From an uncultured Methanosarcinales archaeon (GTDB lineage Archaea; Nanobdellota; Nanobdellia; Woesearchaeales; ARS49), in the NCBI GenBank assembly GCA_964358315.1, contig CAYHOF010000002.1:10738-74737 (forward strand): a stretch of DNA of 64,000 bases, read 5' to 3'. The notes below the pieces were generated by a model. The model saw nothing but the letters and a program-made list of their open reading frames with translations, was not told the origin of the DNA and made no database searches. Made by a program: the position numbers and the translations under genes. Of the stretch, positions 4,540 to 59,949 are shown piece by piece. The number at the start of each line of letters is the position of its first letter. Position 1 is the stretch's first letter.

Positions 4540-4582
4540 TTTGTCGTAAAGGTTTAAAACCCGTCAGGCGCAGCGCTGACGT

Positions 4583-6254: not shown

Positions 6255-6334
6255 TCACGTACCAGTGATTCTTTTCTGCGCACAAGATTGAAATAGCACC
6301 ACGACAGGCCCGGCCACAGTACGGAGGGAGTGGT

Positions 6335-7132
6335 ATGAGCACAGGTCTTGAAGCGATCGCGGACAAAGAATATATTGGGCGCGTCATCATCATAGGACAA
6401 GTCAACGGTCATGAAGTGATCGCGTACGCGGTCACAGGCCGCAGCGAGAGCAGCAGGGCGCGCGTCCTGAAGGAAGACCGAAATGTCATCCGAACCATGC
6501 CAATCGATAGTGAAACTATCAAAAAAGGCAATCCTACATTATTGCTATACGATTGCATACGCCATTGTGGTACAACATTTATCGTTAGCAACGGTGCGCA
6601 GACAAGTGAGATTACACGTGAAACAGCAGAACACCACATTAATCATACGTACACGATGCCGCGTGCTGTGCTCAATGACGTCTTTAGACGACCCATTATT
6701 CTCAACGGTATCGACGTCACGACGTACGAACCTGACGCACCTAACTTTACGCCGCGAATCAGCGGCATCATCACGCCACAAGGCGCGGGTATGTCCCTGA
6801 TAGAGAAATTTGGCGAAGGCGTCGCACAACATTATTTTGACATTCCTCTTGTTGATGGAAAAGGATTCATGCTGGCAACGTACGCCGGCAAGAACGTGCC
6901 TTCCGGCGAGCGGATCCCCCAACACCAAGGACGACCACTGGATATTGGCATCGCAGGGACGACGCCCCAAGAAGTTGCATGTGCACTTTACAATGCACTC
7001 GGACCCAAAGAAGGCACAGGAATTCTAAGTCCGGGCCAGGACTTCCGCGTCGGCGTCGCTGCTGTGTTCTACAACAGGAAGACGAACACGATGAGCAACC
7101 ACATAATCAACCGCCATGAGGTATCACAATGA
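6335..7132 (+). CDS. purO: IMP cyclohydrolase, archaeal PurO type.
   Basis: The N-terminus resembles PurO (GRVIIIGQVNGHEVIAYAVTGRS). It is the first gene of a purine biosynthesis cluster, and its GC is lower than the neighbouring genes. Confidence 0.55.
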   Translation: MSTGLEAIADKEYIGRVIIIGQVNGHEVIAYAVTGRSESSRARVLKEDRNVIRTMPIDSETIKKGNPTLLLYDCIRHCGTTFIVSNGAQTSEITRETAEHHINHTYTMPRAVLNDVFRRPIILNGIDVTTYEPDAPNFTPRISGIITPQGAGMSLIEKFGEGVAQHYFDIPLVDGKGFMLATYAGKNVPSGERIPQHQGRPLDIGIAGTTPQEVACALYNALGPKEGTGILSPGQDFRVGVAAVFYNRKTNTMSNHIINRHEVSQ

Positions 7133-8574: not shown

Positions 8575-8579
8575 CAACA

Positions 8580-10028
8580 ATGGCTGACGATCAAATTGTG
8601 CAGGCGAATCCTAATGTCTTGTCGGAGAGGTATGTGCCGTCTGAAACCAATGAAGTTTTCTCTGAGCGTGGCAAGAACATCGCCGAACGCGAGCTGTGGA
8701 TCGCGGTCATGAAGGGACAAAAAGAACTTGGTGTTCCGATCCCTGGCGAGGATATTGTGAAGTTCGAGAATGCCAAAGACAATGTTGACCTCGCCATGAT
8801 CAAGGAGATCGAACGTAAGACGCGTCACGATATCAAGGCAAAGATCGAAACGTTCGTCAAGACAGCAGGTGCAGGCGAATATTTGCACAAAGCCATGACG
8901 AGCCGGGACCTGACTGATAACGTGGAACAGATGCAGAACTTACGGGCATCAAAGATCATACTAGGTCGTTATGTCGGCGTGGCACGCCACATGATCGACA
9001 AGGTCGAGGAGTACAGAGACATCCTGCTGACCGCGCGCACGCATCACCAAGCAGCCCAACCAACGCTCTTCGGTAGACGGATGGCGATGTGGGCTGATGA
9101 GTTGCTATTCCACATCGGGGAGATGGAACACTTCATCGATGTGTACCCGCTACGCGGCATCAGGGGCCCTGTTGGCACGCAGTTCGACATGCTTTCGCTG
9201 CTCGGCAGCGCTGAAAAAGTAGACCGGCTCGAAATACTCGTCGCAAAACATCTAGGGTTCGCAAAGACGCTTGATGCGACAGGACAAGTGTATCCACGAT
9301 CGCTTGATTATGCACTCGCCGCACGACTGGTCGGTCTCGCGGCGGCGTGCGAAAACTTCGGCATCGGCGTACGCTTGATGTCTGGCTACGAATTGTGTGA
9401 AGAGGGCTTCCAGGAAGGCCAAGTCGGCTCCAGCATCATGCCGCACAAGATGAACACGCGGAGTTCAGAGCGTATTTGCGGCGCAGGCAAGCTTGTCAAA
9501 ATGTACAGTGTCGGCGCGATGTTGCTCTCCGGCGACCAATGGGAGGAAGGCGATGTCTCTTGTTCGATCACGCGACGCGTGGTGCAGCCAGACCAGTTCT
9601 ACGCATCGGAAGCGGTGACCGAGACTACCATGACCGTGCTCAACGAGATGGGCGTCTACCCGGAAATGATCAAGGCAGAATTCAAGAAATACCTGCCGTT
9701 CTTGGCATCGACGGAAATGCTGACGATCGCCACAAAAGCAGGCATCGGTAGGGAGCAGGCGCATAAGATCATCAAACAGCATGCGGTGGGCGAAGCGATT
9801 CGTATGCGCAAGACAGGAGAACTCCCGTATCTTGCAAACCGCCTAGCGCAAGACCCAGTGTTCCAACAACACGGCATCACCGAGAAACAATTGCAGTCTG
9901 TGCTTGATGATACGACGCACTTCATTGGCAATGCGAACAAGCAAATGGACGCGGTGAAGACGAAAGCGCAAGTCTTCATCGACAAGTACAAGGACGCCGC
10001 GGCATACGAGCCACGACCGATCCTCTGA
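8580..10028 (+). CDS. purB: Adenylosuccinate lyase.
   Basis: The 482 aa protein has the fumarate-lyase family signature (MTSRDLTDN, GSSIMPHKMN). Confidence 0.85.
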   Translation: MADDQIVQANPNVLSERYVPSETNEVFSERGKNIAERELWIAVMKGQKELGVPIPGEDIVKFENAKDNVDLAMIKEIERKTRHDIKAKIETFVKTAGAGEYLHKAMTSRDLTDNVEQMQNLRASKIILGRYVGVARHMIDKVEEYRDILLTARTHHQAAQPTLFGRRMAMWADELLFHIGEMEHFIDVYPLRGIRGPVGTQFDMLSLLGSAEKVDRLEILVAKHLGFAKTLDATGQVYPRSLDYALAARLVGLAAACENFGIGVRLMSGYELCEEGFQEGQVGSSIMPHKMNTRSSERICGAGKLVKMYSVGAMLLSGDQWEEGDVSCSITRRVVQPDQFYASEAVTETTMTVLNEMGVYPEMIKAEFKKYLPFLASTEMLTIATKAGIGREQAHKIIKQHAVGEAIRMRKTGELPYLANRLAQDPVFQQHGITEKQLQSVLDDTTHFIGNANKQMDAVKTKAQVFIDKYKDAAAYEPRPIL

Positions 10029-10096
10029 ACCCATCACCTACCAGTGATTTCGTTTTTCGGGCAAGATTTTAATAGACGGAGACAAGGGAGCACATC

Positions 10097-10591
10097 ATGG
10101 CGAAGAAGATCAAGAACACCGCGAAGAAATCCGCAAAGCCAGTCGTCATCAAGGAAGCTGCTGTCGAGAAGAAGGACGCCGTCAAGCATGACGTGAAGCC
10201 ATCGCTCTTCAAGGCAGGCATCGTGGCGTTCGTGGTCATCGCAGTCATCAATTTCGTCGTGAACGGCATCTTGCTCGCACCGGTGTGGAGCGCGATGGAA
10301 GTCGCGGGCGTGGTGCGCGAAGGCCAGGGCGGCCAGATTGCGCTCGCAGGCATCTTCGGCCTCATGCTCGTCATGGGCTTCGTCCTTGCGTGGCTTGTCA
10401 AGCGTGCGCAGCTCAAGGGCGCAGGCGCTGCATTGGGCTTTGGCGTCGTGATCGGCATCTTCATAGCGGTTCCTGACGTCGCAGGATTCCTGTTCTATCG
10501 CGTGCCTGCCATCGTGCCGATCGTGGGGCTTGTGGCCAACATCGTGGGGTTCGCGCTCGCGAGCATGGCTGCCTGGTTCGTCAACAACTAG
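10097..10591 (+). CDS. Membrane protein with a Lys-rich N-terminus followed by 4 TM helices.
   Basis: The hydrophobic segments were read directly from the sequence. No family was recognised. Confidence 0.45.
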   Translation: MAKKIKNTAKKSAKPVVIKEAAVEKKDAVKHDVKPSLFKAGIVAFVVIAVINFVVNGILLAPVWSAMEVAGVVREGQGGQIALAGIFGLMLVMGFVLAWLVKRAQLKGAGAALGFGVVIGIFIAVPDVAGFLFYRVPAIVPIVGLVANIVGFALASMAAWFVNN

Positions 10592-10633
10592 GCGTCCATA
10601 AGTCTTTTAAGCGGCCAGAAGGGTTGTTCTGGC

Positions 10634-11341
10634 ATGCATGACATACATAGTGCCATCCTTCTCGCTGGAGGCCTTGGGACGCGCTTGCGGCCGCTCACGC
10701 TCACGACACCAAAGCCATTGGTGCCGGTGCAGGGCAGGACGCTGATCGAGATGAATTTCGACATCCTGCGTAAGTTCGGCATCACGGACGTGACGTTGTG
10801 CGTCGGCTATCTTGCGGACACGATCAAGGCGTACATTGGAGATGGTTCTCGTTTTGGGCTCCGTGTTTCGTACTGTGTCGAACACGAGCCATTGGGGACT
10901 GGAGGCGCAATCGCGCAGGTGCGCAGGCCTCAAGGCACGACGCTCGTGATGAACAGCGATAACCTCTACGATATCGATCTCAATGACGTCTACAACAAGC
11001 ACAAGGCATCTGGTGCGCTCGTGACAGACATGCTCACGCAAATCGAGGACCCGACCAAATCAGGCGTCGTGCGGCTCGAAGGAGAAAAAATCATTGAGTT
11101 CGTGGAGAAACCGAAGCTCGAAGACGCGCCTTCACGACTCATCAATGCCGGTTATTACTTGTTCGAGCCCAGCGTGTGGGACCACCTGCCCAAAGGCAAG
11201 TGTTCGCTCGAAAAAGACGTGTTCCCTCTGCTCGCGAGAGACCGGAAGATGAACGCCTTCATCGGCACCGGGCAGTGGTTCCCGACCGACACACCAGAAC
11301 TTCTTGCGCAGGTCAACAATAAATGGGTCCCTGTGCGTTGA
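10634..11341 (+). CDS. Sugar-phosphate nucleotidyltransferase (NDP-sugar pyrophosphorylase family).
   Basis: It has the G-rich loop LLAGGLGTRLRPLT and KPLVPV. Confidence 0.7.
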   Translation: MHDIHSAILLAGGLGTRLRPLTLTTPKPLVPVQGRTLIEMNFDILRKFGITDVTLCVGYLADTIKAYIGDGSRFGLRVSYCVEHEPLGTGGAIAQVRRPQGTTLVMNSDNLYDIDLNDVYNKHKASGALVTDMLTQIEDPTKSGVVRLEGEKIIEFVEKPKLEDAPSRLINAGYYLFEPSVWDHLPKGKCSLEKDVFPLLARDRKMNAFIGTGQWFPTDTPELLAQVNNKWVPVR

Positions 11342-11367
11342 ACGCAAGGTTCTAATACCATCATTGC

Positions 11368-11997
11368 GTGTCAAATGGCGTGGTAAAGACGTCGTGGGAT
11401 GCTGAGGTCAAGAGACACCGTTTGCCGGATCACGATATCGAATTCATTTTCTTGAAGCGTTGGTCGCCGCGTTCGATGACGGGAGAATCTATCGATAAGG
11501 AAGAGCTCATGTCGCTCTTCGAAGCGGCGCGCTGGGCGCCCTCATCGTACAACGGACAGCCCTGGCGTTTCGTCTACGCGATGCGTGGCACGACGCAGTT
11601 CGAGACGTTCTTCAAGTTGCTCACGCCAGGCAACCAAGAATGGTGCAAGGACGCCGCTGTGCTCGTCGTGACGGCGTCGCGTGACACCTTCGAATATAAT
11701 AGCAAACCAGAACGCACGCACACCTTCGACACGGGCGCTGCGTGGGAGAACATTGCGTTGCAGGCAGCGGCGCGCGAGCTCGTGGTGCACGCCATGGAAG
11801 GCTTCGATTACGACAAGGCCGCGAAGGTCTGCAAGATACCCAAAGGCCACACTATCGAGATGATGTTCGCCGTGGGCAAGCGCGGCTCAAAGGACAGGCT
11901 GCCCGAGCGTGTGCGCGAGTGGGAGGCACCAAACGCACGCAAGAAGGTGGAAGAGTTCGCCTTCGAGGGCGTGTTCAAGGAAACGAAGAAAAAATGA
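11368..11997 (+). CDS. Nitroreductase family protein.
   Basis: It has the pattern RWAPSSYNGQPWRFV, a GTG start and a length of about 209 aa. Confidence 0.65.
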   Translation: MSNGVVKTSWDAEVKRHRLPDHDIEFIFLKRWSPRSMTGESIDKEELMSLFEAARWAPSSYNGQPWRFVYAMRGTTQFETFFKLLTPGNQEWCKDAAVLVVTASRDTFEYNSKPERTHTFDTGAAWENIALQAAARELVVHAMEGFDYDKAAKVCKIPKGHTIEMMFAVGKRGSKDRLPERVREWEAPNARKKVEEFAFEGVFKETKKK

Positions 11998-12004
11998 CGG
12001 AAGA

Positions 12005-12319
12005 TTATTTGTGTCCGAAGTAGAACATCTTCTTGATGTCGACGTCTTCGGGCGTGTAGTTGCCCTGGCGCGGGTGGGACGCCGGCTTGTCATCGGAAGG
12101 CAGCACTTTCTGTGCTGGTTCTGATCGCTGCTGCCGTGGCGCGGCCGCCATCTGCGCTTTGAGCTGTTGCATGTCCGACACTTGGGCCTTGATACTCTGG
12201 AACTCCATCGCGAGCGCTTGTATGGTGTCCTTGAGCAGCGTGACCTGCTTGTCGTATTTCTTCATCTGTTGCTCGAAGAGCATCTTGTACCGCTCTTCTA
12301 TCAACGCACTGCCATCCAT
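12005..12319 (-). CDS. Coiled-coil hypothetical protein, the last gene of a 3-gene minus-strand operon.
   Basis: The ORF is 104 aa with heptad-like repeats. It is tightly spaced behind the zinc-ribbon gene. Confidence 0.4.
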   Translation of the reverse strand: MDGSALIEERYKMLFEQQMKKYDKQVTLLKDTIQALAMEFQSIKAQVSDMQQLKAQMAAAPRQQRSEPAQKVLPSDDKPASHPRQGNYTPEDVDIKKMFYFGHK

Positions 12320-12337
12320 GATGATTCCTCCTCTTTT

Positions 12338-12574
12338 TCAGTAGTATGGTTCGAACTTCGGTGTGGTCTGGGGCTCGTTCACGGCCGGTTTTGATTGTTG
12401 TGGCGCCGGGATCTTTGCGCGCTGCACTGTTGAAAGCTGGCCGCTGCACTTGTCGCAGTAGACCTTGTTTCCGTTGCGTTGCGAGATGCACATCTCGCAC
12501 ACGCGCACGCCGCACCAGTTGCAGACGCCGATGATATCCTTGCGGTGCTTGATGCACCGGTCAGCACTACCCAT
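12338..12574 (-). CDS. Zinc-ribbon / B-box-like zinc-finger protein.
   Basis: Cys pairs CIKH...CNWC...CEMC...CDKC fall within 50 aa, consistent with a B-box or treble-clef pattern. Confidence 0.5.
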   Translation of the reverse strand: MGSADRCIKHRKDIIGVCNWCGVRVCEMCISQRNGNKVYCDKCSGQLSTVQRAKIPAPQQSKPAVNEPQTTPKFEPYY

Positions 12575-13315
12575 TCATGCACCCTGGAAGTTCTCCTTGA
12601 TGAACTCGAGCATCATGGTGTTGCCTGCCTTTTCGTAGGCGTCGTGCGCCATGCGCAGCACGCCTTGGCGCAGGCACGTGTCGCCGAGCAGGTTAAGCTT
12701 GTCCTTGTCTTCCGCGCCCGAGTATGACTTGAACGCGTACGCGAGCTGGTTGTCCGCGAGGCAGCGGTCGCCCACCTCGACGAGTTTGGGCTTGCTCTTG
12801 ATGGCGCTGAACACTTCGATGGCGAAGTCCCACTTGGACTTGTTCATGCAGAATTCGCCGACCTTGATGAGCTTCTCGTTGTTGCCGAGCAGCCGGTACG
12901 CCTTGATGGCGTCGCCGAGCCTGCCGTCCGTGAGGCACTTGTCGCCGATGCGCATGAGTTCGTCGCGGTTGTCCGCGAGGCGGAACGCGTCGATGGCGTG
13001 CGAGAACAGCGCGACTTTCTCGTAGTCGTGCCCGATCTCGGTGAGCTTCGAGCGGTTGCCGCTGAGGATGAACGCCTTGATCGCCTGGTCGAGCGAGCCT
13101 TTGCGTTGGTATTCCTCGCCAAGCGCGTTGAGGATGCCGAGGCGTGTCTCCTCGTTGAACATCGTCAGGTTGATGTTGTCCAGGCCTTTCTCGATGAGGC
13201 TTGGGACGATGCGTCGGAAATTGTCCATTTCAGGCTTCTTGTTCAAGACGGCCTGGCTTGCCTGCGCCATGTTGTCGACCATCTTCCTCATAATGACTGA
13301 ATCTTCGGCTGCCAC
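12575..13315 (-). CDS. Tandem-repeat protein with six 29-aa repeats (L..hG..C[LM]..G.L..AI.A[FY]...G), a TPR/HEAT-like solenoid.
   Basis: The repeats were aligned by eye, for example LMRIGDKCLTDGRLGDAIKAYRLLGNNEK and LVEVGDRCLADNQLAYAFKSYSGAEDKDK. Its stop abuts the start of the zinc-ribbon gene. Confidence 0.6.
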   Translation of the reverse strand: MAAEDSVIMRKMVDNMAQASQAVLNKKPEMDNFRRIVPSLIEKGLDNINLTMFNEETRLGILNALGEEYQRKGSLDQAIKAFILSGNRSKLTEIGHDYEKVALFSHAIDAFRLADNRDELMRIGDKCLTDGRLGDAIKAYRLLGNNEKLIKVGEFCMNKSKWDFAIEVFSAIKSKPKLVEVGDRCLADNQLAYAFKSYSGAEDKDKLNLLGDTCLRQGVLRMAHDAYEKAGNTMMLEFIKENFQGA

Positions 13316-13451
13316 GTGTTCACCTGCACTTCCTTTTTCTGTGTCCCTCTTTTACTATTCCGCAATAAAAACTGGAGACATATTTAAATTTTATTAGACT
13401 GCAGATGGGCGGGCGCAAAGCTTTTTATCCATTGCAGGGTGCGGCGCTGAC

Positions 13452-13889
13452 ATGGCTGAGGACATCATGACCACGCTGCGTGAGTGGGCGCTGCAGTACC
13501 TGCAGAACCGCGACCTGCTCATGCGGGCCATCACCGGGATCCAGAAGAACACGGACGGGTGGGACATCGTGCTCACGACGACCACGGAGTCCCGTTACGT
13601 GACCGTCCTGCCCGACCTTGGCGCCATCACAGGCATTCTTGAGAAGGCGAGCGGCAAGAATGTGCTTGTCGTCACGACCAACGTGCGCACGAACGTCGAC
13701 GCCGTCATCGCGGCATGGCCGGAACTCATCAAGCACCCTAAACTCTCGATCCTGTTCGTCAACCCGTACTCGGGCACGGACAAGCGCTGGACCATCAACC
13801 CGCACGTGCACGAGAAGGTCACCGAGCGCAAGGCGCTCAAGCTTGGCCTCTATAGTCTTTTCTCGACGGTCGAAGAATACGCGGGCTAA
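13452..13889 (+). CDS. Hypothetical protein (145 aa).
   Basis: The ORF has good GC3 codon usage. A divergent AT-rich promoter (TTTAAATTTTA) lies at about 13380-13395. Confidence 0.45.
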   Translation: MAEDIMTTLREWALQYLQNRDLLMRAITGIQKNTDGWDIVLTTTTESRYVTVLPDLGAITGILEKASGKNVLVVTTNVRTNVDAVIAAWPELIKHPKLSILFVNPYSGTDKRWTINPHVHEKVTERKALKLGLYSLFSTVEEYAG

Positions 13890-14224
13890 CGCGCGGCAAG
13901 GACGATCGTGGCGATGCCGATGAGCGTGCCGGCCACTACTTGCCAGGGCGTGTGGCGCTTGATGTTGTGGTGCCCGAACGCGTCGTACATGACGATGAGC
14001 GCGAACACGAGCGTCACGATAAAGAGCGTGCTCTCGAGGCCTTCAGTGAAGCCGACTGCTGTCACGAGCGAGGACACGAGCGCGGAATGGGAGCTCGGCA
14101 TGCCTCCCGGCTGGAAGAAGCTGCGCCACAAGAAGCGCTTGGCGTGCACGCTATCAATGGTCGTCTTGAGCGATTGCGTGATGAGCCACGCGAGCGGCAC
14201 GTACCAGTAGAGCGTCGACACCAT
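13886..14224 (-). CDS. YuiD/PAP2-like membrane protein (acid phosphatase/vanadium haloperoxidase-related, DUF212).
   Basis: It has the GGMPSSHSA motif and a hydrophobic profile typical of the family. Its ATG lies 2 nt downstream of the tRNA-Gly 3' end. Confidence 0.65.
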   Translation of the reverse strand: MVSTLYWYVPLAWLITQSLKTTIDSVHAKRFLWRSFFQPGGMPSSHSALVSSLVTAVGFTEGLESTLFIVTLVFALIVMYDAFGHHNIKRHTPWQVVAGTLIGIATIVLAAR

Positions 14225-14225
14225 A

Positions 14226-14296
14226 TGCGGCTGGCGGGAATCGAACCCGCATCCGAAGCTTGGGAAGCTCCTATTCTACCACTAAACTACAGCCGC
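14226..14296 (-). tRNA. tRNA-Gly (anticodon CCC). CCA is not encoded.
   Basis: Folded by hand from the reverse complement GCGGCTGTAGTTTAGTGGTAGAATAGGAGCTTCCCAAGCTTCGGATGCGGGTTCGATTCCCGCCAGCCGCA. The 7 bp acceptor stem, the anticodon loop UUCCCAA, the T-arm GCGGG-UUCGAUU-CCCGC and discriminator A are all consistent. Confidence 0.85.
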
Positions 14297-14320
14297 GTAT
14301 GACTGCGGCGATAATGGCAG

Positions 14321-14330
14321 GATAAAAAAC
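14321..14330 (-). promoter_or_regulatory. TATA box (GTTTTTTATC on the minus strand) 25-34 nt upstream of the tRNA-Gly 5' end.
   Basis: The position relative to the tRNA was read directly. The element overlaps the stop of the PRC-barrel gene. Confidence 0.5.
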
Positions 14331-14629
14331 TACTCTTCTGCCTCGGACTCCTCGCCCGAGTAGCTCGGCACCGCGGCCTTGGATATAATCATGACGTCGC
14401 CGATGCTCTTGACGAGCGTGTGCGGCACGACGACTCCTTTTGCCGAGCCGAGCACCTTGCTCAAGAACGAGTTCTTGGTCGCGCGGACGCGCCAGCCATG
14501 CACTTTGGTCGGTGTGAGCACCGCTTCTTCCACGTCACCGAAATAGTCACCGGTATCCGTGAAGACCTTCATATCGTACGCTTCAGAAACCTTCTTGAGC
14601 TTCAACATCACCATTCCCTCCTTACACAA
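14330..14629 (-). CDS. PRC-barrel domain protein.
   Basis: It matches the small archaeal PRC-barrel pattern (VFTDTGDYFGDVEEAVL...VVVPHTLVKSIGDVMII). The exact start among several N-terminal Met codons is uncertain. Confidence 0.55.
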   Translation of the reverse strand: MCKEGMVMLKLKKVSEAYDMKVFTDTGDYFGDVEEAVLTPTKVHGWRVRATKNSFLSKVLGSAKGVVVPHTLVKSIGDVMIISKAAVPSYSGEESEAEE

Positions 14630-14729
14630 CGATTGTTTATACCATTACGTAATGGTCATAGTATTTAAATTTTGTCGGGCTAGAGGATGCACCCATAGGC
14701 ATAAATACGTTCGTTCTGGACGATATCGC

Positions 14730-15401
14730 ATGATTGTGGGCAATCTCGTGATCATCGGCACCAGCCATATCGCCAAGCAGAGCGTGAAGGAGATCGACGC
14801 CGCCTTCGAGGACCACACGCCTGCTGTCGTCGCCATCGAACTCGACAGTGGCCGCCTCGAAGGATTGCTGCATCCGCAGCCGCACAAGGTGCGCTTGCGC
14901 GACATCAGGCAGTTGGGGGTCACGGGGTTCTTGTTCTCCGTCATCGGCGCATGGGCGGAGAAGGCGCTTGGCGGCCAGGTGGGGACAAAACCCGGCGCGG
15001 ACATGCTGCACGCGATCAAGCTCGCGCAGCGACGCAAGATTCCCATAGCGCTCGTCGACCAGGACATCCGCATCACGCTCAAGCGCCTCTCAAAAGGCGT
15101 CACCTGGCGTGAGAAGGGAAGGTTCATCCTGGATGTCGTCAAAGGCGCGCTTGGCGGCAAGAAACAGCTGCCCTTCGACCTCAGCACGGTGCCGAGCCAG
15201 GAGGTCATCGACACGCTCATCAAGGACGTGCGCAAGCGTTATCCGAACGTGTACCGCGTGCTCGTGCACGAACGCAATCACGTCATGGCACGACGGCTCG
15301 CCGACCTTTCCAGGCGCACGACGAACGGACGCGTGGTCGCGATCGTGGGCGCCGGCCACACGCGCGAGATCGCCGGGATCGTGCGGCACCACCTCGGATA
15401 G
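14730..15401 (+). CDS. TraB/GumN family protein.
   Basis: It has IIGTSHIAKQSVKEI ... VVAIELD ... IALVDQDI. The start is taken at ATG 14730, in frame with ORF 14559. Confidence 0.7.
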   Translation: MIVGNLVIIGTSHIAKQSVKEIDAAFEDHTPAVVAIELDSGRLEGLLHPQPHKVRLRDIRQLGVTGFLFSVIGAWAEKALGGQVGTKPGADMLHAIKLAQRRKIPIALVDQDIRITLKRLSKGVTWREKGRFILDVVKGALGGKKQLPFDLSTVPSQEVIDTLIKDVRKRYPNVYRVLVHERNHVMARRLADLSRRTTNGRVVAIVGAGHTREIAGIVRHHLG

Positions 15402-17229: not shown

Positions 17230-18219
17230 TTAGCGTGGAAGAACGCCGTAGCGTTGTCCATAGCGTCGCGGCAATGAATCACATGCCTCACTATACAACT
17301 CTTTATCGACCTGTCTCAGCCACAGCAGCATTGCACCAACACATTCCGGCACAACAGGCAAGTTCCCTGTGATAACATCACACATATCCTGTGGTCTTGC
17401 AAGTGTCAGAACGCCATCATGGCAGCTTCCATCGCTCGCGGAGAACATTGAGTCATGAATCACGCTTGCGGGCAACAATATTTGAGACTGATAGTACGCT
17501 GCGACACCTGTTGTCCCTTCGACAAAGCCAAGAAGCGATGGGCTCAGGACAGGGATACCAAGTTCCTCATTGAGCTCACATGCGAGTGTCCTCGTTGATA
17601 GGGCAAGGAAATCGTTGGCGCGTGATTCACGCTCCGATCTGAACAACGCTGCAGGATCACCATCGACGAACCCACCGACGGCATGATAGCAACCCGCATA
17701 GGATGCCGTAGCGCTGCGACGAAACAGCAACAAGGAGCCAGAACTATCAAAGAGAAGAATGCCCACGCCAAACGGCCTGCTGAAGAAGGCAAGTGGATCG
17801 GCATACTGCTGCTCACCCGCATGGATAAGGCGATCATACAGAGCGTCATCCGTGTGAGCAGGTAATCCTGTCGCCGCCCGCTCGTGGTATATTGTGGGAC
17901 CGAACCTCAGGACAAGGTGGTGCTTCCCGCCCGCGCCATCAGAACAATCCCAGAATGAACGATGACCGTCAAAGCGAAGCTTCCGATCGTCATACCCGCC
18001 TTTGTTGATGAGCCCCGCACAGAGAGGAGCATGAACGCGCTCCTCCAAGGCGAGATCGAAATCGCGGGAAAGAGTCGGCGCTGCTGAAGGTGAAACAAAA
18101 GGCAAACATGATGCAACTTCAGGTAACACTGCCATAGCATTGCCCTTGACGACGTGGAGCGCATCGTAGTCTGCCATGGCTGCAATCATGTAAAGATGTT
18201 CCATACAGCATGACCTCAA
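17230..18219 (-). CDS. Nudix hydrolase-like protein with an uncharacterised N-terminal domain.
   Basis: It has a Nudix-box-like segment GGFVDG...RTLACELNEELGI. It lies immediately downstream of the Ski2-like helicase on the same strand. Confidence 0.5.
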   Translation of the reverse strand: MRSCCMEHLYMIAAMADYDALHVVKGNAMAVLPEVASCLPFVSPSAAPTLSRDFDLALEERVHAPLCAGLINKGGYDDRKLRFDGHRSFWDCSDGAGGKHHLVLRFGPTIYHERAATGLPAHTDDALYDRLIHAGEQQYADPLAFFSRPFGVGILLFDSSGSLLLFRRSATASYAGCYHAVGGFVDGDPAALFRSERESRANDFLALSTRTLACELNEELGIPVLSPSLLGFVEGTTGVAAYYQSQILLPASVIHDSMFSASDGSCHDGVLTLARPQDMCDVITGNLPVVPECVGAMLLWLRQVDKELYSEACDSLPRRYGQRYGVLPR

Positions 18220-20274: not shown

Positions 20275-21024
20275 ATGGAACAGAGCTTGGAACGAACAGT
20301 ACAACGCGCCCAAGAATCACACGTTGCGCCAGACCAACGCACATTCACAGTAGAACAAGCGATCAGCATCATCAACGAAGCAGAAGCGCTCCAACGTTTC
20401 GATAAGGATGTACAGGATGAGCATCGACTGCATCTTGAGGGCACGCTGGCGACAACGCCGATGTCGCGCGACGATCTCACGACGCTGGCGCAAAAAGCGG
20501 GCGTTGCCGCACACTACACCGATCGCGTGCTTGACAAGCGATATCCATCATTCGAAGAACAGATGAATGATCTTCGTATGCTTGGCTCAAACCTGAACAG
20601 TGATGTTCGCATGAAGACGTATTTAGATGCGGTCCGAACTATGTTCGGACAAGTCCACCAGCAAGCCTTCCCTCAAGGGCAAGAAACGTTAGAGGTAACA
20701 CGTGATTACGGTAATGGACGAGAGTTTTCACGATGCATACAAACAAGTGTCGAACGTGTTATCCGGCCAGGCATGATTGCGCGCTGGTGCGGCGCAAAGC
20801 TAACAAAAGTCAATGAAGTCCACAAGAAGTACATAGAAGCTGCAACAGTAGCAGTGTTTAGTACGCCTAATATGTGCCAAATAACACTACACGACCCTGT
20901 GTTCACCAAGCTCATCGCAGCACCACTTGCCGAACTTAATCGCGATGTGGCGAAATATTTTTCTGCCATCAACGTGACGCATAAATACGTACCCGGTAAC
21001 AGTCTCGAAGGCTTGAAACTCTAG
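20275..21024 (+). CDS. Hypothetical protein (249 aa) with GC lower than its surroundings.
   Basis: ORF with a leaderless-type promoter (TTTATATATG at about 20244-20253). Confidence 0.45.
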   Translation: MEQSLERTVQRAQESHVAPDQRTFTVEQAISIINEAEALQRFDKDVQDEHRLHLEGTLATTPMSRDDLTTLAQKAGVAAHYTDRVLDKRYPSFEEQMNDLRMLGSNLNSDVRMKTYLDAVRTMFGQVHQQAFPQGQETLEVTRDYGNGREFSRCIQTSVERVIRPGMIARWCGAKLTKVNEVHKKYIEAATVAVFSTPNMCQITLHDPVFTKLIAAPLAELNRDVAKYFSAINVTHKYVPGNSLEGLKL

Positions 21025-21638: not shown

Positions 21639-24077
21639 ATGCGTCGGGTTGTCGTCGTCCTGTCTTTGCTGCTCGCACTAGCATCGTCTGTCCTTGCCGC
21701 GCCTGCGACAGTCACTATCTCTCCTGTGTCGCTGTATGAGACCACGCAACGGCCCTTCACGCTCACCATCGACAACGACAACATCGGTGCGCAGGCGATC
21801 ACTGCAGTGGACATCACGACGCCCAACATGACCATCGATGCCGTGCGTCCGCTCAGTGGCTGGAGCGAGAACCACACGACGACCACGATCCGCTGGTCTG
21901 ATGGCGTTGTCGCAGAAGGCGCACTGCAGCGGCTGTACTACAACGCGAGTGCGGCCATCGTCACGGCAGACCAGACCATCACGATTCCGGTCATCGCAAC
22001 CACAGCTGGCGGCACGCAGAACACCGATGTCCAGATCACGATCCTCAACGATCCAAGCACGCCGAGCGTGACGTCGAACTTCCCGCAAGACGGCTCCTAC
22101 ATCCGCGAAGGCAAGACCGACCAGCGCGTCTTCGTCGACGCGCAGGACCCGCAGACCGGTGTCAAGAACGCGGACTTCTCCTACTGGGATTGCGCGAGCA
22201 ACACCAGCCACACGAACGTGGCGCTCACGTGCACCGCAGGCGTGTGCGAAACGATTCTCGACGTCTCGTCGTTCGATGAAGGCGACCGGATGTGCTTCGA
22301 ATTCCTCGTCTACAACAACGCGCTCGACGCGACCAACCTCTCCGGCAGCGCGGGCTTTGATGGCACCGCGCCCGCAATCGACGTCATCGCGCCCGCCGAC
22401 GGAGCGTATGGCGCCAACAACACTATCTTCACGTACAATGCGAGCGACAACCTCGCACCTACACTCTCCTGCGACCTGCTGCTGGATGGCACGATCATCG
22501 ATTCGGTGACGGCGACAAACGCCGCCATCACCACGACCACCTACGATATGTCATCGGCATCTGAAGGCACGCACGCGTGGAACCTGCAGTGCACTGACTG
22601 GGTCGGCTGGCTCACGGCGTCAGGCACGCGCAGCATCATCGTGGACAAGACGCCGCCGACCATCACGCTCAATAGTCCTGCGAACGGATCGACCATCCCC
22701 GACGGCATGATTATCGATATCTCGGTGATGGATAACTACGAAGTTGACACCGTGACCTATAGTGCCAGCCGCAATGCGTCCGACTTGCCTGAAGGCCTCA
22801 ACACGCTCACCGTGACCGCGACAGACAAAGCAGGCAACGTTGCGACAATCGGTTACGCATTCACTGTCGATCGGACCGCGCCGACCGTCACGCTCATCGC
22901 GCCGGCAGACAACAGCACGGTGGATGTCGCGCTGGGCTTCGAGTTCAGCGCCACTGACGCATTCGACACGTCACCGACCTGCACGCTCAGCGCTGATGGC
23001 AGCGCGCTCGCGACACAGGATGTCACGAACGGCACGCCGACCAACATCACGCAGACGCTCCCTATCGCGATCCACACATGGCAGGTGTCGTGCACAGACG
23101 ATGCAGGCAATGTCGGGACGAGTACATCCTGGACCGTCAACGTCACCGACCTCAGAGGGCCGACCATCATCTCTGACGTGGTCTACGTGGCACGCACCGA
23201 GGAATTCCCCTTCAGCGCAACGATCACCGACCCGAGTGGCGTGGCGAGCGCTGGTGCCGCGGTCGACGGATCGGCCATCACGTTCAGTGGCGTGAGCCCG
23301 ACTTACAGCGGCTCGATCCTGATGGATATCGGCACGCCGCTTGGCAGCCACGACCTCACGCTCGACGCGACAGACACGTACGGCAACCCGGGCGTGCTTG
23401 TCGATGCGTTCACGCTCATCCAAGGCTACACCATCACACTCAGCGCCAGTCCTGCTTCTGTCCTGCCAGGCGAGAGCGTCACGGTCGCTGGCACGGTCGT
23501 GCTTGACGATGGCGCTGCGGCGCCAGAACAGTCCCTCCTGCTCTTCCTGCCGGGCGAGACGGTGAACATCTCCATCGTCAACGGCACGTTCAGCACGTCG
23601 TTGAGCGCGCCAGGCGCAGGCACGTACACGATCGTTGCGTCCATCATCTCGTCCGAAGGCTTCGCACACAACAAGACGACGACGCTCACTGTCAACAACC
23701 CGCCTGCGCCAAGCGGTGGTGGCGGAGGCGGCGGTGGCCGTCGCAACAGCGGGTCGTCTGGTGTTGTGCAACCTCCTGCGCCGCAGGAGACTCCGCGCGT
23801 CAACCCTGCGCCGCTCTTGCCAGACGAGGATGAAGACAAGCCAGAGGAAGATGACGACAGCGGCAAGACTGAAGATACTGATGCAGGCGAAGTGATTCCT
23901 GAGGACGAGCCGCGCGTGCCCCTCGGCGTGGGTGCGTCCACGTCCTGGTTCGACAACGTGGTCGGCAATGTCTGGGCATGGCTCCTGCTCATCATCATCG
24001 CGATAGCGCTGGGCATCGCGGCCTTCAAGCGCAAGAAGAAGGACAACATCGACTGGGACGGCTATTTCGAGAAGTAG
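21639..24077 (+). CDS. Large secreted surface (S-layer-like) protein with tandem Ig-like beta domains. It has a Gly8/Pro-rich and acidic stalk and a C-terminal TM anchor with a KRKKKD tail.
   Basis: It has a signal peptide (MRRVVVVLSLLLALASSVLAAPA), repeated Thr/Asn-rich beta-rich modules, GGGGGGGG, and a DEDEDKPEEDDD stalk. The C-terminus reads WAWLLLIIIAIALGIAAFKRKKKD. Confidence 0.65.
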   Translation: MRRVVVVLSLLLALASSVLAAPATVTISPVSLYETTQRPFTLTIDNDNIGAQAITAVDITTPNMTIDAVRPLSGWSENHTTTTIRWSDGVVAEGALQRLYYNASAAIVTADQTITIPVIATTAGGTQNTDVQITILNDPSTPSVTSNFPQDGSYIREGKTDQRVFVDAQDPQTGVKNADFSYWDCASNTSHTNVALTCTAGVCETILDVSSFDEGDRMCFEFLVYNNALDATNLSGSAGFDGTAPAIDVIAPADGAYGANNTIFTYNASDNLAPTLSCDLLLDGTIIDSVTATNAAITTTTYDMSSASEGTHAWNLQCTDWVGWLTASGTRSIIVDKTPPTITLNSPANGSTIPDGMIIDISVMDNYEVDTVTYSASRNASDLPEGLNTLTVTATDKAGNVATIGYAFTVDRTAPTVTLIAPADNSTVDVALGFEFSATDAFDTSPTCTLSADGSALATQDVTNGTPTNITQTLPIAIHTWQVSCTDDAGNVGTSTSWTVNVTDLRGPTIISDVVYVARTEEFPFSATITDPSGVASAGAAVDGSAITFSGVSPTYSGSILMDIGTPLGSHDLTLDATDTYGNPGVLVDAFTLIQGYTITLSASPASVLPGESVTVAGTVVLDDGAAAPEQSLLLFLPGETVNISIVNGTFSTSLSAPGAGTYTIVASIISSEGFAHNKTTTLTVNNPPAPSGGGGGGGGRRNSGSSGVVQPPAPQETPRVNPAPLLPDEDEDKPEEDDDSGKTEDTDAGEVIPEDEPRVPLGVGASTSWFDNVVGNVWAWLLLIIIAIALGIAAFKRKKKDNIDWDGYFEK

Positions 24078-24893
24078 ATGGTATTCGAACAATTCCTCGA
24101 GGTCGACCGCGTCAAGCGGCACGTGCTCTCGATAGCAGGCCTTGGCGTGCTGTACGTGGGCGTGAGCTTCCTTGTGGCAGCGTACTTCTTCGGTCGTGAC
24201 GTGTCTGTGGCCATGCTCTTCTCGATCACCATCCTGCTCCTGCCCTCTGCGCACGCGCTCGTCGCGTCCGAGGAGAAGATCGAGCGGCGCACAGGCACGC
24301 GGCACTTCTTGCGCAACCACAAGGACATCTTCCGCACCTACCTCCTCTTGTTCGTCGGCATCCTGGTCGCGTACATCGCGCTGGGCCTCGTGTTCGGTGA
24401 CGGCATCTTCACCTACCAGCTCGGTTTCCTGGGCGCACGCGGTGACATAACAGGCGACATTGCGGCAAATGCGCGCGGACACGTGCCCACGCCGGGCTCC
24501 GTGCTTGGCGTGGCGACGCAGAACGCCATCGTGATCATCATCGGCTTCGTCCTTTCGTTGTTCTTCGGCGCAGGCGCGCTGTTCCTCATCACCCTCAACG
24601 CCTCGGTCTTCGCCGCATTCGTGGTGCACGTGAGCAGGCAGGTCGCGAACCCTGCAGGCATCATAGGATTGTTCCTCATCCACACGATCCCTGAGATGGC
24701 AGGGTTCCTTGTCGCATCCATCGCAGGCGGCGTCGTCTCGCGCGCCATCATGAAGGAACGTCTTGGGAGCGATAAGTTCCGCAACGTGATGAAGGACGCG
24801 CTCGTGCTCCTCGCCATCGCCGTGGGCATCATCATCATCGCCGCAGTGCTCGAACAGTATGGCACCGCCCCCCTCGTCAAGTACGTGGTCTGA
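24078..24893 (+). CDS. SpoIIM/DUF95 family membrane protein.
   Basis: It has 6 TM helices and the pattern typical of DUF95. A paralog lies at 51459..52292. Confidence 0.55.
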   Translation: MVFEQFLEVDRVKRHVLSIAGLGVLYVGVSFLVAAYFFGRDVSVAMLFSITILLLPSAHALVASEEKIERRTGTRHFLRNHKDIFRTYLLLFVGILVAYIALGLVFGDGIFTYQLGFLGARGDITGDIAANARGHVPTPGSVLGVATQNAIVIIIGFVLSLFFGAGALFLITLNASVFAAFVVHVSRQVANPAGIIGLFLIHTIPEMAGFLVASIAGGVVSRAIMKERLGSDKFRNVMKDALVLLAIAVGIIIIAAVLEQYGTAPLVKYVV

Positions 24894-24953: not shown

Positions 24954-27200
24954 ATGACCACCGTGACGTTCGCGGCTGTGAGGGACATCACGCCGCGGCT
25001 CTATCAGGAGATCATCCTTGCCACGTGTGTCAAGAAGAACACGCTCGTGGTGCTACCCACAGGCATGGGCAAGACCGCGATCGCGCTCCTGCTCGCGCTG
25101 CACCGCATGCAAACACATCCTGGCTCGAAGGTGCTGTTCCTCGCGCCGACAAAGCCGCTCTGTGAGCAGCACATCAGCACGTTCCGCAGGCATCTGGACG
25201 CGCCCGATGACATGTTCTCGCTCTTCACCGGCAGCGTGCCGCCGGCCAAGCGCGCAGCGCAATGGAAAACAGCACAATTCATCTTTTCCACGCCACAAGG
25301 ACTCGAGAACGACATCATGGGCAGCAGCATCAGTCTCGAGGACTGCTCGCTGATCATCTTCGACGAGGCGCATCGTGCGACCGGCGACTACAGCTATGTC
25401 TTTCTCGCGCAACAGTACAACACGCGCGCGAAATTCCCGCACATCCTCGCGTTGACAGCGTCGCCAGGTAGCGAGGTGGAGAAAGTCATGGAGGTGTGCA
25501 CCAACCTCAAGATCGAACAAGTGGAGGTGCGCACGCCCGACGATCCTGACGTGCAGCCCTACGTACAGGAAGTGGACATCCGACCCATCCGCGTGCAGCT
25601 CACGCCAGACATGGAAGCCATACGGAAACTGCTCATCGCGTGCATGCGTTCCAAAGTGGAGGAGTTGCGTAAGGCAGGCCTCACCAAGCTCTCGTTGAAC
25701 CTCTCGAAGCGCGAACTGCTGGGCATGCAAGCAGAATTGCGTGCCAAGATGACGTCAGGCGAGCATGATTATGACACGATGCGCGCGATCTCGGTCGGCG
25801 CGGAAGCGATGAAGGTGCAGCACGCGCTCGAACTGCTCGAATCGCAAGGGCTCTCGCCGCTCATGGAATATTTCGCGAAGCTGCGCGCCGAAGCCGCCGC
25901 CGGACAGAGCAAGGCCGTCAAGAATCTCATGGTCGACGAACACTGGAAGGGCGCGGACATCAAGACGCAACATCTCGCCGACACTGGCGTCGAACACCCT
26001 AAGGTCGAGAAGGTGCAGGAGATCTGCAAGGCCATGGTCGCGGCCAACCCGAAGGCGAAGATCATCGTGTTCACGCAGTACCGCGACACCGCATCCAAAC
26101 TCAAACAAGTGCTTAGTAGCGCGCCAGGCGTGCTTCCCGAAGTGTTCGTCGGCCAGCAAAAAAAGAAAGGCATCGGTTTGTCACAGAAACAGCAGGTCGA
26201 GTTGTTGCAACAGTTCGGCGACGGCCTCTTCAACGTGCTGCTTGCCACGTGCGTCGCCGAAGAAGGCCTTGACATCCCCACCGTCGACTTGGTGCTCTTC
26301 TACGAGCCTGTGCCAAGCGCTATCAGAACAATCCAGCGCCGCGGCCGGACCGGACGACACGAGGCAGGCAAGGTCATGACGCTCATCACGCAAGGCACGC
26401 GCGACGAAGCGTTCGCTGCAAGCGCGAAATACAAGGAACGCAATATGAACGTCATCCTGCAGGACTTGCGCGCCACGCTCAACAAGAAGTTGCTCCAGCA
26501 ACCACAAGCCACGCTCGCGCGCTACGAGAACACGCAACCCCGGATGACCAAGACCGGTCCGAAGATCTACATCGACTACCGTGAGAAAGCCAGCGGCACG
26601 GCCAAAGAGCTGCTTGAGCGCGGCGCACAGATCACGCTCGAGATGCTGCACGTGGGCGACTATATCGTGAGCGAACGATGCGGCATCGAGTTCAAGACGC
26701 AGGACGACTTCCTTGGCAGTATGATCGACGGACGTTTGCTCGAACAGCTCAAGCACCTGCGCAAAGGGTACGAGCGACCGCTCATCATCGTCGAGGGGGA
26801 CAAGGACTTGTACACATTGCGCAACATCCATCCCAACGCCATCCGCGGCATGCTGGCAGCCATCACCGTCACGTACGGCATACCTATGCTGTGGAGCAAG
26901 ACGCCCATCGAGACCGCGCAGCTCATCATGACGATCGCAGAACGCGAACAGAACGAAACGACGAACAGTTTCTCGCCGCACGCGAACCGCAAACCACTTA
27001 CACTTGCACAGCAACAAGAGTACATCGTCAGTGCATTGCCACAAGTGGGCTTGCAACTCGCGCAGGAACTGCTCAAGAAGTTCGGCAGCGTGCAAGCAGT
27101 GCTGAACGCAAGCATCGACGACCTCAAAGCGGTGGAAGGCGTTGGCGACAAGAAAGCGTCGGTGATAATCGATATCGCGAGGAGCAAGTATGGCAATTGA
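24954..27200 (+). CDS. hef: Hef helicase-nuclease (XPF/FANCM family). It has an SF2 helicase domain, an ERCC4 nuclease domain and a C-terminal (HhH)2.
   Basis: Motifs are PTGMGKT, DEAHRATG and QRRGRTGR. The ERCC4 motif is YIDYREK...GDY...ERK...D. A C-terminal HhH pair is also present. Confidence 0.85.
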   Translation: MTTVTFAAVRDITPRLYQEIILATCVKKNTLVVLPTGMGKTAIALLLALHRMQTHPGSKVLFLAPTKPLCEQHISTFRRHLDAPDDMFSLFTGSVPPAKRAAQWKTAQFIFSTPQGLENDIMGSSISLEDCSLIIFDEAHRATGDYSYVFLAQQYNTRAKFPHILALTASPGSEVEKVMEVCTNLKIEQVEVRTPDDPDVQPYVQEVDIRPIRVQLTPDMEAIRKLLIACMRSKVEELRKAGLTKLSLNLSKRELLGMQAELRAKMTSGEHDYDTMRAISVGAEAMKVQHALELLESQGLSPLMEYFAKLRAEAAAGQSKAVKNLMVDEHWKGADIKTQHLADTGVEHPKVEKVQEICKAMVAANPKAKIIVFTQYRDTASKLKQVLSSAPGVLPEVFVGQQKKKGIGLSQKQQVELLQQFGDGLFNVLLATCVAEEGLDIPTVDLVLFYEPVPSAIRTIQRRGRTGRHEAGKVMTLITQGTRDEAFAASAKYKERNMNVILQDLRATLNKKLLQQPQATLARYENTQPRMTKTGPKIYIDYREKASGTAKELLERGAQITLEMLHVGDYIVSERCGIEFKTQDDFLGSMIDGRLLEQLKHLRKGYERPLIIVEGDKDLYTLRNIHPNAIRGMLAAITVTYGIPMLWSKTPIETAQLIMTIAEREQNETTNSFSPHANRKPLTLAQQQEYIVSALPQVGLQLAQELLKKFGSVQAVLNASIDDLKAVEGVGDKKASVIIDIARSKYGN

Positions 27201-27663
27201 TTGGACAGGCACACTGGAAACAGTCAAGACCATTGGAGCACTTCTTGCCTTCGTTGTGCTTTTCTTCCAGTTAAGAGACTACTGGAAAAACCGAGTGGAC
27301 GTGATAATTCTTGTCAAACAACGAACGTTTGAAACTTACAACATGAAGGGATTTGATTCTGAACCGACTACGCGACTCATGATCGAAGCAGACATACGTA
27401 ACATTGGATTACAACCAACAACAATTGCTGAAGTAAAAATGTACTCCAAGGAAAAATCTTTAGACAATAAAAGACTCGATGTCAATGGCCACCAACAAGG
27501 AATTAGATTAGAGCCGAACGACAGAAGAATGGTGACTCTTAGCTATTCTTGGAGTCATGAAATGCCAAACAGTCTAAAGAAAATAGGCGTGAGGCTGCTA
27601 TTCAAAACAACTCACGAAAACAAGAAGAAAACTCTCAAATTAAAAAGAGATATAATATCTTAG
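27190..27663 (+). CDS. Hypothetical protein (157 aa, one N-terminal TM helix) encoded in a sharply low-GC (about 38%) segment.
   Basis: It has AT-rich codons, in contrast to the flanking genes at about 62% GC. It overlaps the hef stop by 11 nt. Confidence 0.5.
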   Translation: MAIDWTGTLETVKTIGALLAFVVLFFQLRDYWKNRVDVIILVKQRTFETYNMKGFDSEPTTRLMIEADIRNIGLQPTTIAEVKMYSKEKSLDNKRLDVNGHQQGIRLEPNDRRMVTLSYSWSHEMPNSLKKIGVRLLFKTTHENKKKTLKLKRDIIS

Positions 27664-28511
27664 AACGTCATCTTCTTCAGTCGGCTGATGCGTTCCTGCA
27701 TGGGCGGGTGCGTGCTGAGCAATGACTGAATCCCGTGGAGCGTGAAGGGGTTGACGATGAACATGCTCGACGTGGCGGGATTGCCGCGCATGGGATTGTG
27801 GCGTACGCCGTTCTCGATTTTATGTAACGCGTCGGCGAGCGAGTGGCCGTCCTTGATGAATGACGCGCCGCTCTGGTCGGCGAGGTATTCGCGGCTGCGT
27901 GAGATGGCCATCTGCAGCAGGAGCGCGATGATGGGCGTGATGATGCCGATGGCGAGGAGCGAGAGGATGTTCCCGCCGTCGCGGTCATCGCTGCCACCGC
28001 CGAAGAGCGCGCCAAAGCGTGCCATCATGGCGACGTAGGAGATGACGGCGGCCATGACGCTTGCGATCGTGGTGATGAGGATGTCGCGGTTCTTGATGTG
28101 TGCCATCTCGTGCGCGATGACGCCGCGCAATTCCTTCTCGGAGAGCAGCGCAAGGATACCTTCCGTGCATGCCACGACGCCGTTTTTCGGGTTACGGCCT
28201 GTCGCGAACGCGTTGGGCGTGGCATTGGGAACGATGTAGACCTTGGGGGTTGGTATGCCGGCGCTCGACGCGACGTCGCTGACGATGGCGTGGAGCCGTG
28301 CGTACTGTTTTTTGTCCGCTTCTTTGGCGCCGTACATGAACAGCACGATCTTCGCGGAGAAGAAGTAGGTGATGACGTTCATGAGCAGCGCGAACACGAG
28401 CGCGATGGTGAGGCCGGTCGAGCCGCCAAAGAATTGTCCGACGACAAGAGCAAGACCGGTGAGCAGGCCAAGCAGCAGTAATGTCTTGATATGATTCTCG
28501 ATCATGGACAA
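27660..28511 (-). CDS. htpX: Zinc metalloprotease HtpX (peptidase M48).
   Basis: It has HEMAHIKNRD and TM segments. Confidence 0.85.
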   Translation of the reverse strand: MSMIENHIKTLLLLGLLTGLALVVGQFFGGSTGLTIALVFALLMNVITYFFSAKIVLFMYGAKEADKKQYARLHAIVSDVASSAGIPTPKVYIVPNATPNAFATGRNPKNGVVACTEGILALLSEKELRGVIAHEMAHIKNRDILITTIASVMAAVISYVAMMARFGALFGGGSDDRDGGNILSLLAIGIITPIIALLLQMAISRSREYLADQSGASFIKDGHSLADALHKIENGVRHNPMRGNPATSSMFIVNPFTLHGIQSLLSTHPPMQERISRLKKMTF

Positions 28512-59947: not shown

Positions 59948-59949
59948 AA

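Follow-up and report, generated by a model that had tools for sequence, protein, structure and literature searches.

A probable single-gene horizontal acquisition packed between hef and htpX in a Woesearchaeal genome

The window analysed here is a 64,000-nucleotide stretch of contig CAYHOF010000002.1 (assembly GCA_964358315.1), which is recorded as an uncultured Methanosarcinales archaeon and placed by GTDB in the Woesearchaeales. Between its hef and htpX genes lies ORF157, an open reading frame (ORF) at 27190-27663 on the plus strand that encodes 157 amino acids (aa). ORF157 is a real gene with a base composition foreign to its surroundings, and it probably reached this genome by horizontal transfer from a donor rich in adenine and thymine (AT-rich), entered the hef/htpX spacer without an integrase, is expressed through coupling to hef and yields a membrane-tethered module. 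A preliminary description of the window, made from its sequence, had proposed such a horizontal acquisition, and four independent lines support the proposal: the foreign composition at third codon positions, the empty sites in relatives, the distant homologs in other archaeal contexts and the lack of mobility signatures at the locus. The flanking genes named in it are likewise correct, as Pfam recognises the Hef and HtpX domains in them. The features at the locus are as follows.

27190 to 27663, plus strand: ORF157, AT-rich and probably foreign gene for a membrane-anchored beta-sandwich protein (base composition, ORF statistics, homologs and AlphaFold2 [AF2] model).
24954 to 27200, plus strand: hef (helicase-ERCC4 nuclease-HhH), the upstream host gene (Pfam DEAD, Helicase_C, ERCC4 and HhH).
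27660 to 28511, minus strand: htpX (M48 zinc metalloprotease), the convergent host gene that bounds the insertion (Pfam Peptidase_M48).
27179 to 27184, plus strand: GAGGAG, a Shine-Dalgarno (SD)-like motif in the sequence, 5 nt before the ATG of ORF157.
27190 to 27200, plus strand: the first 11 nt of ORF157 (ATG, 27190-27192) overlap the end of hef (TGA, 27198-27200), a geometry of translational coupling.
27660 to 27663, both strands: overlapping convergent stops, TAG of ORF157 (27661-27663, plus) and TAA of htpX (27660-27662, minus).

The content of guanine and cytosine (GC) in ORF157 is 38.8%, against a window mean of 58.5% (474-bp windows, standard deviation 4.7%), which places it about 4 standard deviations low. 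By codon position, GC is 0.43/0.33/0.40 in ORF157, 0.60/0.38/0.78 in hef and 0.55/0.41/0.83 in htpX, and the AT-rich codons that had been reported as unlike those of the neighbours are thus evident at the third position (GC3). Of the 67 ORFs (80 aa or longer) taken by a greedy selection, ORF157 alone falls below 50% GC. The tetranucleotide analysis that had been suggested alongside sliding-window GC also sets the gene apart (distance z=5.1, rank 11 of 1271 windows), the more deviant windows all lying over an origin-like region at 59.8-60.4 kb. The GC-normalised dinucleotide signature, which is not discriminating at such length, is ordinary (rank 240 of 1271), so that the anomaly is essentially one of base composition. 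The GC drop had been described as coinciding exactly with the ORF; the low GC and the sharp 3' edge hold, whereas the 5' edge is gradual. At the 3' end, GC rises from 25-33% to 58-63% inside about 30 nt at 27660, while the first 81 nt of ORF157 have 47% GC and the remainder 35-40%.

Both junctions of ORF157 and an identical 157-aa product are present in six separate assemblies made from Hainich groundwater. These cover the 0.1 and 0.2 um fractions of well H43 in several replicates, five of them coming from ENA assembly records and the sixth from Logan; they are 99.7-100% identical to the window and show no mismatches in or near the gene. Every contig that bears the host's own HtpX also carries ORF157. 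The chance of an ORF spanning the segment is P ~8e-4 (20,000 shuffles), with 6-14 stops in the other five frames. It is hardly credible, then, that the low-GC segment is a chimera of assembly or binning, or that the ORF is spurious and the region an AT-rich intergenic terminator. The source contigs do have low coverage (2-4 in the contig names), AT-rich hef-htpX spacers do occur in relatives, and one of the assemblies contains a scaffolding artefact inside htpX. Against this, the junctions and product agree across different filter fractions, replicates and pipelines, which rules out a chimeric assembly; homologs at E=2e-17 and a confidently predicted fold mark the ORF as protein-coding, and the spacers of relatives measure 21-33 bp, not 460 bp.

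The artefact just mentioned lies at 5964-6069 of locus L001, from a low-coverage assembly, corresponding to window positions ~28330-28353, and consists of a 10-N scaffold gap and ~96 nt of unrelated sequence. The join falls at a repeated stretch of ~24 nt (ending CATGAACAGCACGATCTTC) and results in a spurious 324-aa HtpX call. This discontinuity is an assembly artefact without effect on ORF157.

The gene is fitted to its site with no intergenic DNA at all. The location between hef and htpX that had been given is right, except that ORF157 overlaps both genes: its ATG sits 8 nt ahead of the hef TGA, and its stop shares positions with that of htpX. This ATG is its sole plausible start, since an in-frame TAA precedes it at 27166-27168 and no other start codon occurs before the hydrophobic helix of the product. 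The GAGGAG motif and the ATG both lie within hef codons, in DNA of host composition, which makes co-expression with hef probable. SD-like motifs precede 13 of the 33 confident genes of the window, mostly tightly packed, operon-internal ones, and gene overlaps of 4-8 nt are common in this genome. Judging by this geometry, ORF157 is most likely expressed as a downstream cistron of hef via translational coupling.

The same junction was compared among relatives of the host. Hef relatives among GTDB species representatives are metagenome-assembled genomes of Woesearchaeota/Nanoarchaeia (43-63% identity), and a search for HtpX in 5.8 billion proteins reached 68% identity at most, with many HtpX homologs source-labelled Woesearchaeota; no genus-level relative of the host was found in the searched collections (best Hef 63%, best HtpX 68%). 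The gene order hef, slot, convergent htpX and toprim, then priL in the direction of hef, is kept in Woesearchaeota, and the content of the slot varies.

L038 (closest HtpX, 68%; hef also 748 aa): hef and htpX converge with a 21-bp spacer.
L041: hef and htpX converge with a 33-bp spacer.
L014 (closest hef): hef directly abuts toprim.
L030, 8224 to 8583 (second-closest hef, 57%): 360 bp at 45% GC in a locus of 55% GC, with an unrelated 93-aa ORF at 8284-8565 that has no Pfam match.
L016 and L017: the slot holds a gene for a 247-aa lipoprotein-like protein.
L018: the slot holds a 146-aa gene.
L019: the slot holds 3.7 kb with several genes.
L040, 5840 to 6337: the slot holds a 165-aa DUF5680 gene on the hef strand, overlapping hef by 29 nt and the htpX end by 4 nt.

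The comparison with relatives thus gives empty sites in three of them (L038, L041 and L014) and unrelated fillers in other lineages. No member of the ORF157 family was found in any of these hef/htpX loci when all their ORFs were searched with the family profile. The filler in L030 suggests that the junction repeatedly receives small foreign genes, and the simplest history that the sequences offer is a short ancestral spacer which repeatedly took different genes, ORF157 being the acquisition of this lineage. The DUF5680 gene of L040, a locus of another Woesearchaeote, shows the same zero-spacer packing as ORF157 and encodes an unrelated protein. Five of the loci (L014, L017, L019, L023 and L024) have Woesearchaeota-like Hef and gene order in records titled "uncultured Methanosarcinales archaeon", and their taxonomy is probably mislabelled.

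ORF157 might instead be an old resident, either older than the rise of this genome to high GC or inherited vertically, and lost in the sampled relatives, its AT-richness kept by selection (through low expression or a protein rich in K, N and I). The nearest comparators are indeed distant, most Woesearchaeota are AT-rich (24-45% GC in 13 of 19 archaeal relative loci), the GC3 of ORF157 lies between those of its family (~0.22) and its host (~0.80), and the gene is tightly integrated without spare DNA and fixed in all population contigs seen. Such a history must nonetheless count as unlikely. GC3 is not constrained by the protein, and a genome-wide mutation pressure that holds the neighbours at 0.78-0.83 should have lifted ORF157 too; the three empty sites are in independent relatives, and at least five others carry different fillers; even at profile sensitivity the relatives' loci yield no family member, and the family itself is patchy over unrelated archaeal contexts, again in AT-rich patches.

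The gene had been called an orphan, and a word-indexed homology search with its protein returned only that protein. An exhaustive HMMER/phmmer scan of 1.84 billion representatives, by contrast, recovered 31 distant relatives (E 2e-17 to 1e-4, 27-39% identity), mostly of 155-195 aa and aligned over residues ~9-155. ORF157 is therefore not a strict orphan; it belongs to a small, unnamed archaeal family, and the existence of homologs rules out its birth de novo from the spacer. The alignment of the 31 sequences (A1) defines this family by a transmembrane helix and a beta-sandwich, and the ORF157 protein scores 179 bits against its profile over its full length. A profile search of the collection of 5.8 billion proteins found 5 family members, and genomic context is hence available for few relatives. 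A1 was too divergent for scans of loci; a tighter alignment (A2) found 4 metagenome loci.

At the N-terminus, A1 shows a hydrophobic helix after a D-W-F-like acidic tail, followed by a K-x-R-V segment. Three polar motifs are conserved in the remainder, and the ORF157 protein carries all of N71, G73, T77, R106, D111 and F138.

27400 to 27423, plus strand: motif N-x-G-L-(E/Q)-P-T-T (N71-T78), with N71 invariant and G73 and T77 at least 90% conserved in A1.
27505 to 27525, plus strand: motif R-x-E-x-N-D-R (R106-R112), with R106 and D111 at least 90% conserved in A1.
27601 to 27615, plus strand: motif F-K-T-x-H (F138-H142), with F138 at least 90% conserved in A1.

The conservation of these polar motifs hints at a definite binding site. 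No Pfam, NCBIfam, PHROG or PADLOC family fits the ORF157 protein, nor does any fit a consistent subset among the 31 members; the best PHROG match of the ORF157 protein has E=0.15, the PADLOC-DB defence families give none at E up to 10, and a sequence-profile search of the PDB for the family returned nothing relevant.

AF2, run with A1, models the ORF157 protein with a predicted local distance difference test score (pLDDT) of 94.8 and a predicted template-modelling score (pTM) of 0.81. The model and the hydropathy profile agree with the earlier account of a 157-aa protein with a single transmembrane segment.

27202 to 27288, plus strand: N-terminal helix, aa 5-33 (hydrophobic core ~aa 14-28), a single membrane anchor (AF2 and hydropathy).
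27301 to 27645, plus strand: eight-strand immunoglobulin (Ig)-like beta-sandwich, aa 38-152, predicted to be cytoplasmic (AF2).

Past the helix comes a juxtamembrane segment rich in K and R (R29, K33, R35). Nearly all members have 0-1 K/R and 0-3 D/E in the 12 residues that precede the helix, and a charge of +3 to +6 in the 12 that come after it. Four members (P0008, P0011, P0018 and P0020) have a signal-peptide-like segment ahead of the helix; next to this segment, P0011 and P0018 have a short stretch with many N-glycosylation sequons, and P0008 has a sequon-containing domain of ~170 aa. From these charges and the relatives with signal peptides, the short N-terminal tail is predicted to lie outside and the beta-sandwich in the cytoplasm (N-out/C-in).

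This polarity bears on the idea that the protein is a subunit like type IV pilins or archaellins, secreted and assembled in a surface filament. A pilin would need a class III signal peptide with a [KR][GA] cleavage site, which is missing here, and the positive cluster follows the helix, the opposite of prepilins; the separate signal peptide before the helix in four members would place the sandwich in the cytoplasm; the identity with pilin sequences is 4-13%; and no secretion ATPase or prepilin peptidase was found among the genes called in family loci, where only a sub-threshold T2SSF-like match occurs (L035). The pilin reading, very unlikely on these counts, was rejected on signal-peptide polarity. 

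As the likeliest role, put forward tentatively from the architecture, the product may be an adaptor or ligand-binding module held at the membrane.

Signatures of mobility are missing around ORF157, in agreement with the earlier remark that no integration machinery is obvious. Neither direct nor inverted repeats nor a target duplication bracket 27190-27663, where only short chance matches occur; the nearest transfer RNA (tRNA) genes, at 1976 and 14226, offer no target; and the neighbours (hef, htpX, toprim and a SpoIIM-like gene) include no integrase or transposase. Elsewhere, the family genes that could be retrieved in context lie as follows.

L007: 29% GC, in a contig of 29% GC that also has a DDE transposase and numerous small genes lacking annotation.
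L008 to L013 (P0034 in L008): 28.5% GC against ~49% in genes for Fpo (F420H2 dehydrogenase), including FpoO, within an island of more than 12 kb at ~30% GC.
L034: 24% GC against ~45% in the flanks, beside MoxR, DUF58 and vWA genes.
L035, 7974 to 8474: 31% GC against 45-53% in the flanks, ATGA-coupled to the upstream gene (locus 6445-8474).
L036: 30% GC against 35% in a 1.1-kb contig, with no informative context.
L037: 26% GC against 32% for a short contig (up to 39% locally), with no informative context.

The family gene lies 13-21 GC points below its flanks wherever these could be retrieved and reach 41% GC or more, and there is no conserved neighbourhood among the retrieved loci. Amino-acid usage is of AT type in 26 of the 31 members. 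In L035, the upstream gene is of higher GC, and its secreted product of 510 aa bears a PGF-CTERM archaeosortase signal; translational coupling of a family gene to an upstream gene of higher GC is seen here for a second time. The island in L008 (~2500-14892) directly follows the Fpo genes, was seen in at least 6 sequencing runs, and holds genes for a 1557-aa TPR protein, a DUF2971-like protein, an MNT-type nucleotidyltransferase, a NosD/beta-helix protein, Prok-JAB and DUF4326. Its likely nature is that of a large foreign or defence-type island, and the genome that carries it is probably Methanosarcinales-like.

Short, AT-rich, patchy genes without fixed neighbours are the classic profile of virus-derived ORFan-like genes, and ORF157, with the same traits, could be the remnant or cargo of an archaeal virus or plasmid (for example, a membrane protein of superinfection exclusion or defence) whose element has decayed. 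The nucleotidyltransferase, JAB and DUF4326 genes around the L008 homolog and the transposase near the homolog in L007 are in keeping with this, as are phage proteins in BFVD with a transmembrane helix and a beta-sandwich, which reach a template-modelling score (TM-score) of 0.63. Yet no family member appeared on the 2.9 million IMG/VR contigs (one pattern scan) or, by tblastn, in 50,697 phage and 72,556 plasmid records; the PADLOC and PHROG searches, as given above, produced nothing better than E=0.15; the ORF157 locus has no other element-derived gene; and the viral proteins matched by fold are of a generic sort (DUF4352/DUF5067 type, at 10-17% identity). Cargo of this kind, although plausible in principle, is accordingly quite unlikely.

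The horizontal acquisition from an AT-rich donor may be pictured as follows. The donor gene would have entered a GC-rich Woesearchaeote, a DPANN archaeon, by illegitimate, integrase-independent recombination into the very short spacer of the convergent hef and htpX, and the insert would then have been trimmed or fitted until no non-coding DNA was left. With its start inside hef and its stop on that of htpX, ORF157 has no promoter of its own; it would be transcribed with hef and translated by termination-reinitiation coupling. The product would expose a short acidic N-terminal tail and cross the membrane once, with the K/R-rich segment and the Ig-like sandwich of ~115 aa in the cytoplasm, and such an architecture might allow a membrane-tethered adaptor to recruit a cytoplasmic partner or ligand to the membrane.

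Several points weigh against this account. The co-transcription with hef and the use of the GAGGAG motif and its ATG are read from the sequence. The hydrophobic core of the helix is short (~15-17 residues). The GC3 of ORF157, 0.40, stands above the 0.22-0.25 of retrievable family members and below the host value, and it could reflect either partial amelioration, with a less recent acquisition, or a different, less AT-rich donor. Four members (P0009, P0010, P0012 and P0020) have amino-acid usage of GC type, so the family is not universally AT-rich and GC-adapted copies probably exist. Finally, with the nearest genome at 63-68% in Hef and HtpX, a gain in this lineage is not strictly separable from an older gain followed by loss; for the same reason, the arrival of ORF157 cannot be dated as "recent", the term used in the preliminary description.

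A wider version would make the family a free-standing, highly mobile archaeal accessory module (for example, a membrane-tethered cytoplasmic sensor or adaptor, in virus exclusion or DPANN-host interaction) that passes among distant archaeal lineages too often for its copies to reach host composition more than rarely, and the hef/htpX junction a recurrent, integrase-independent hotspot of gene capture with expression by hef coupling. As a whole, this is rather unlikely.

Other parts of the window deserve brief mention. Three ORFs (20275-21024, 17230-18219 and 6335-7132) have GC of 0.50-0.53 and GC3 of 0.49-0.54, against a GC3 of 0.7-0.9 in typical genes. They may be compositional outliers of an older or milder kind, or else the greedy selection may have taken the wrong frame. 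Upstream of hef, 21639-24077 encodes an 812-aa protein with a signal peptide, Ig-like repeats, poly-Gly, a stalk rich in acidic D/E residues and, at the C-terminus, a hydrophobic anchor, probably a surface protein, and the gene of the SpoIIM-like membrane protein (24078-24893) lies directly downstream of it.

The deepest GC trough of the window (to 24%) is a non-coding segment of ~560 bp at 59820-60377, located between orc1/cdc6 (58605-59819, minus strand) and the gene of a TrmB-like regulator (60378-61157, plus strand); the gene of the PolD small subunit (57143-58642, minus strand) adjoins. Inverted elements of 27 nt at 59925-59951 and 60222-60248, which are 89% complementary and include TTCCTCTGGAAC as well as the string GGGGTG, lie on either side of 270 bp of extreme AT content. 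By its sequence, the segment looks like a chromosomal replication origin with origin recognition boxes (ORB boxes) and an unwinding element. As it is non-coding and origin-like, it was ruled out as a second foreign islet.

In terms of current understanding, ORF157 overturns nothing: it is an ordinary single-gene acquisition, and its value lies in annotation and as an illustrative case. It offers a clean example of single-gene horizontal acquisition, at the strength given above, in a DPANN archaeon with a compact genome, in which a foreign gene would have been made expressible without a promoter or mobility genes by a slot at a convergent junction and by the use of the last codons of the upstream gene for initiation. 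The previously unnamed archaeal family, with its transmembrane helix, predicted cytoplasmic Ig-like sandwich and three polar motifs, is a candidate for family databases, and the hef/htpX junction is flagged as a variable slot in Woesearchaeota.

Among the known proteins compared with the family, archaeal type IV pilins and archaellins (PDB 6w8u, 8fk7, 8fjs and 5tfy) differ from it, as it has no class III signal peptide, the opposite charge polarity about the helix and no pilus-assembly genes in the neighbourhoods examined. The sandwiches of ApaG/DUF525, the FixG-related C-terminal domain and PCuAC-type proteins (PDB 1xvs, 1tza, 2r39 and 3zk0) share 7-13% identity with it and give no match by hidden Markov models; in contrast to them, the ORF157 family has an additional N-terminal membrane anchor, and its NxGLEPTT, RxExNDR and FKTxH motifs are unlike those of ApaG or the His/Met copper site of PCuAC. 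For the luminal domain of TMEM106B and LEA-2-like proteins (PDB 8b7d; AF_0446, 3but), no LEA_2 (PF03168) match exists at E up to 0.1 in any of the 31 sequences. The topology of TMEM106B and LEA-2 proteins is N-in/C-out, whereas the charges and upstream signal peptides of the ORF157 family predict the reverse. Bacterial and phage proteins of the DUF4352, CARDB and DUF5067 families are likewise small Ig-like sandwiches with a transmembrane or lipid anchor, and weak Pfam matches to DUF4352 (E=0.02) and CARDB (E=0.037) occur in one of the 31 members each, below curated thresholds. These families are extracytoplasmic, in contrast to the predicted cytoplasmic sandwich of ORF157.

As a genomic element, ORF157 shares with a classical integrase-mediated island the atypical composition and the absence from relatives, without the integrase, tRNA and repeats. 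It is closer to the single-gene genomic islet, a compositionally atypical accessory gene acquired horizontally, as in the amelioration framework of Lawrence and Ochman. ORF157 resembles such single-gene islets in a deviation of GC and GC3 confined to one gene, in its absence at syntenic sites and in its patchy homologs, and it differs from them in having no non-coding flank, a start and a ribosome-binding motif borrowed from hef, and a stop that shares its position with that of htpX.

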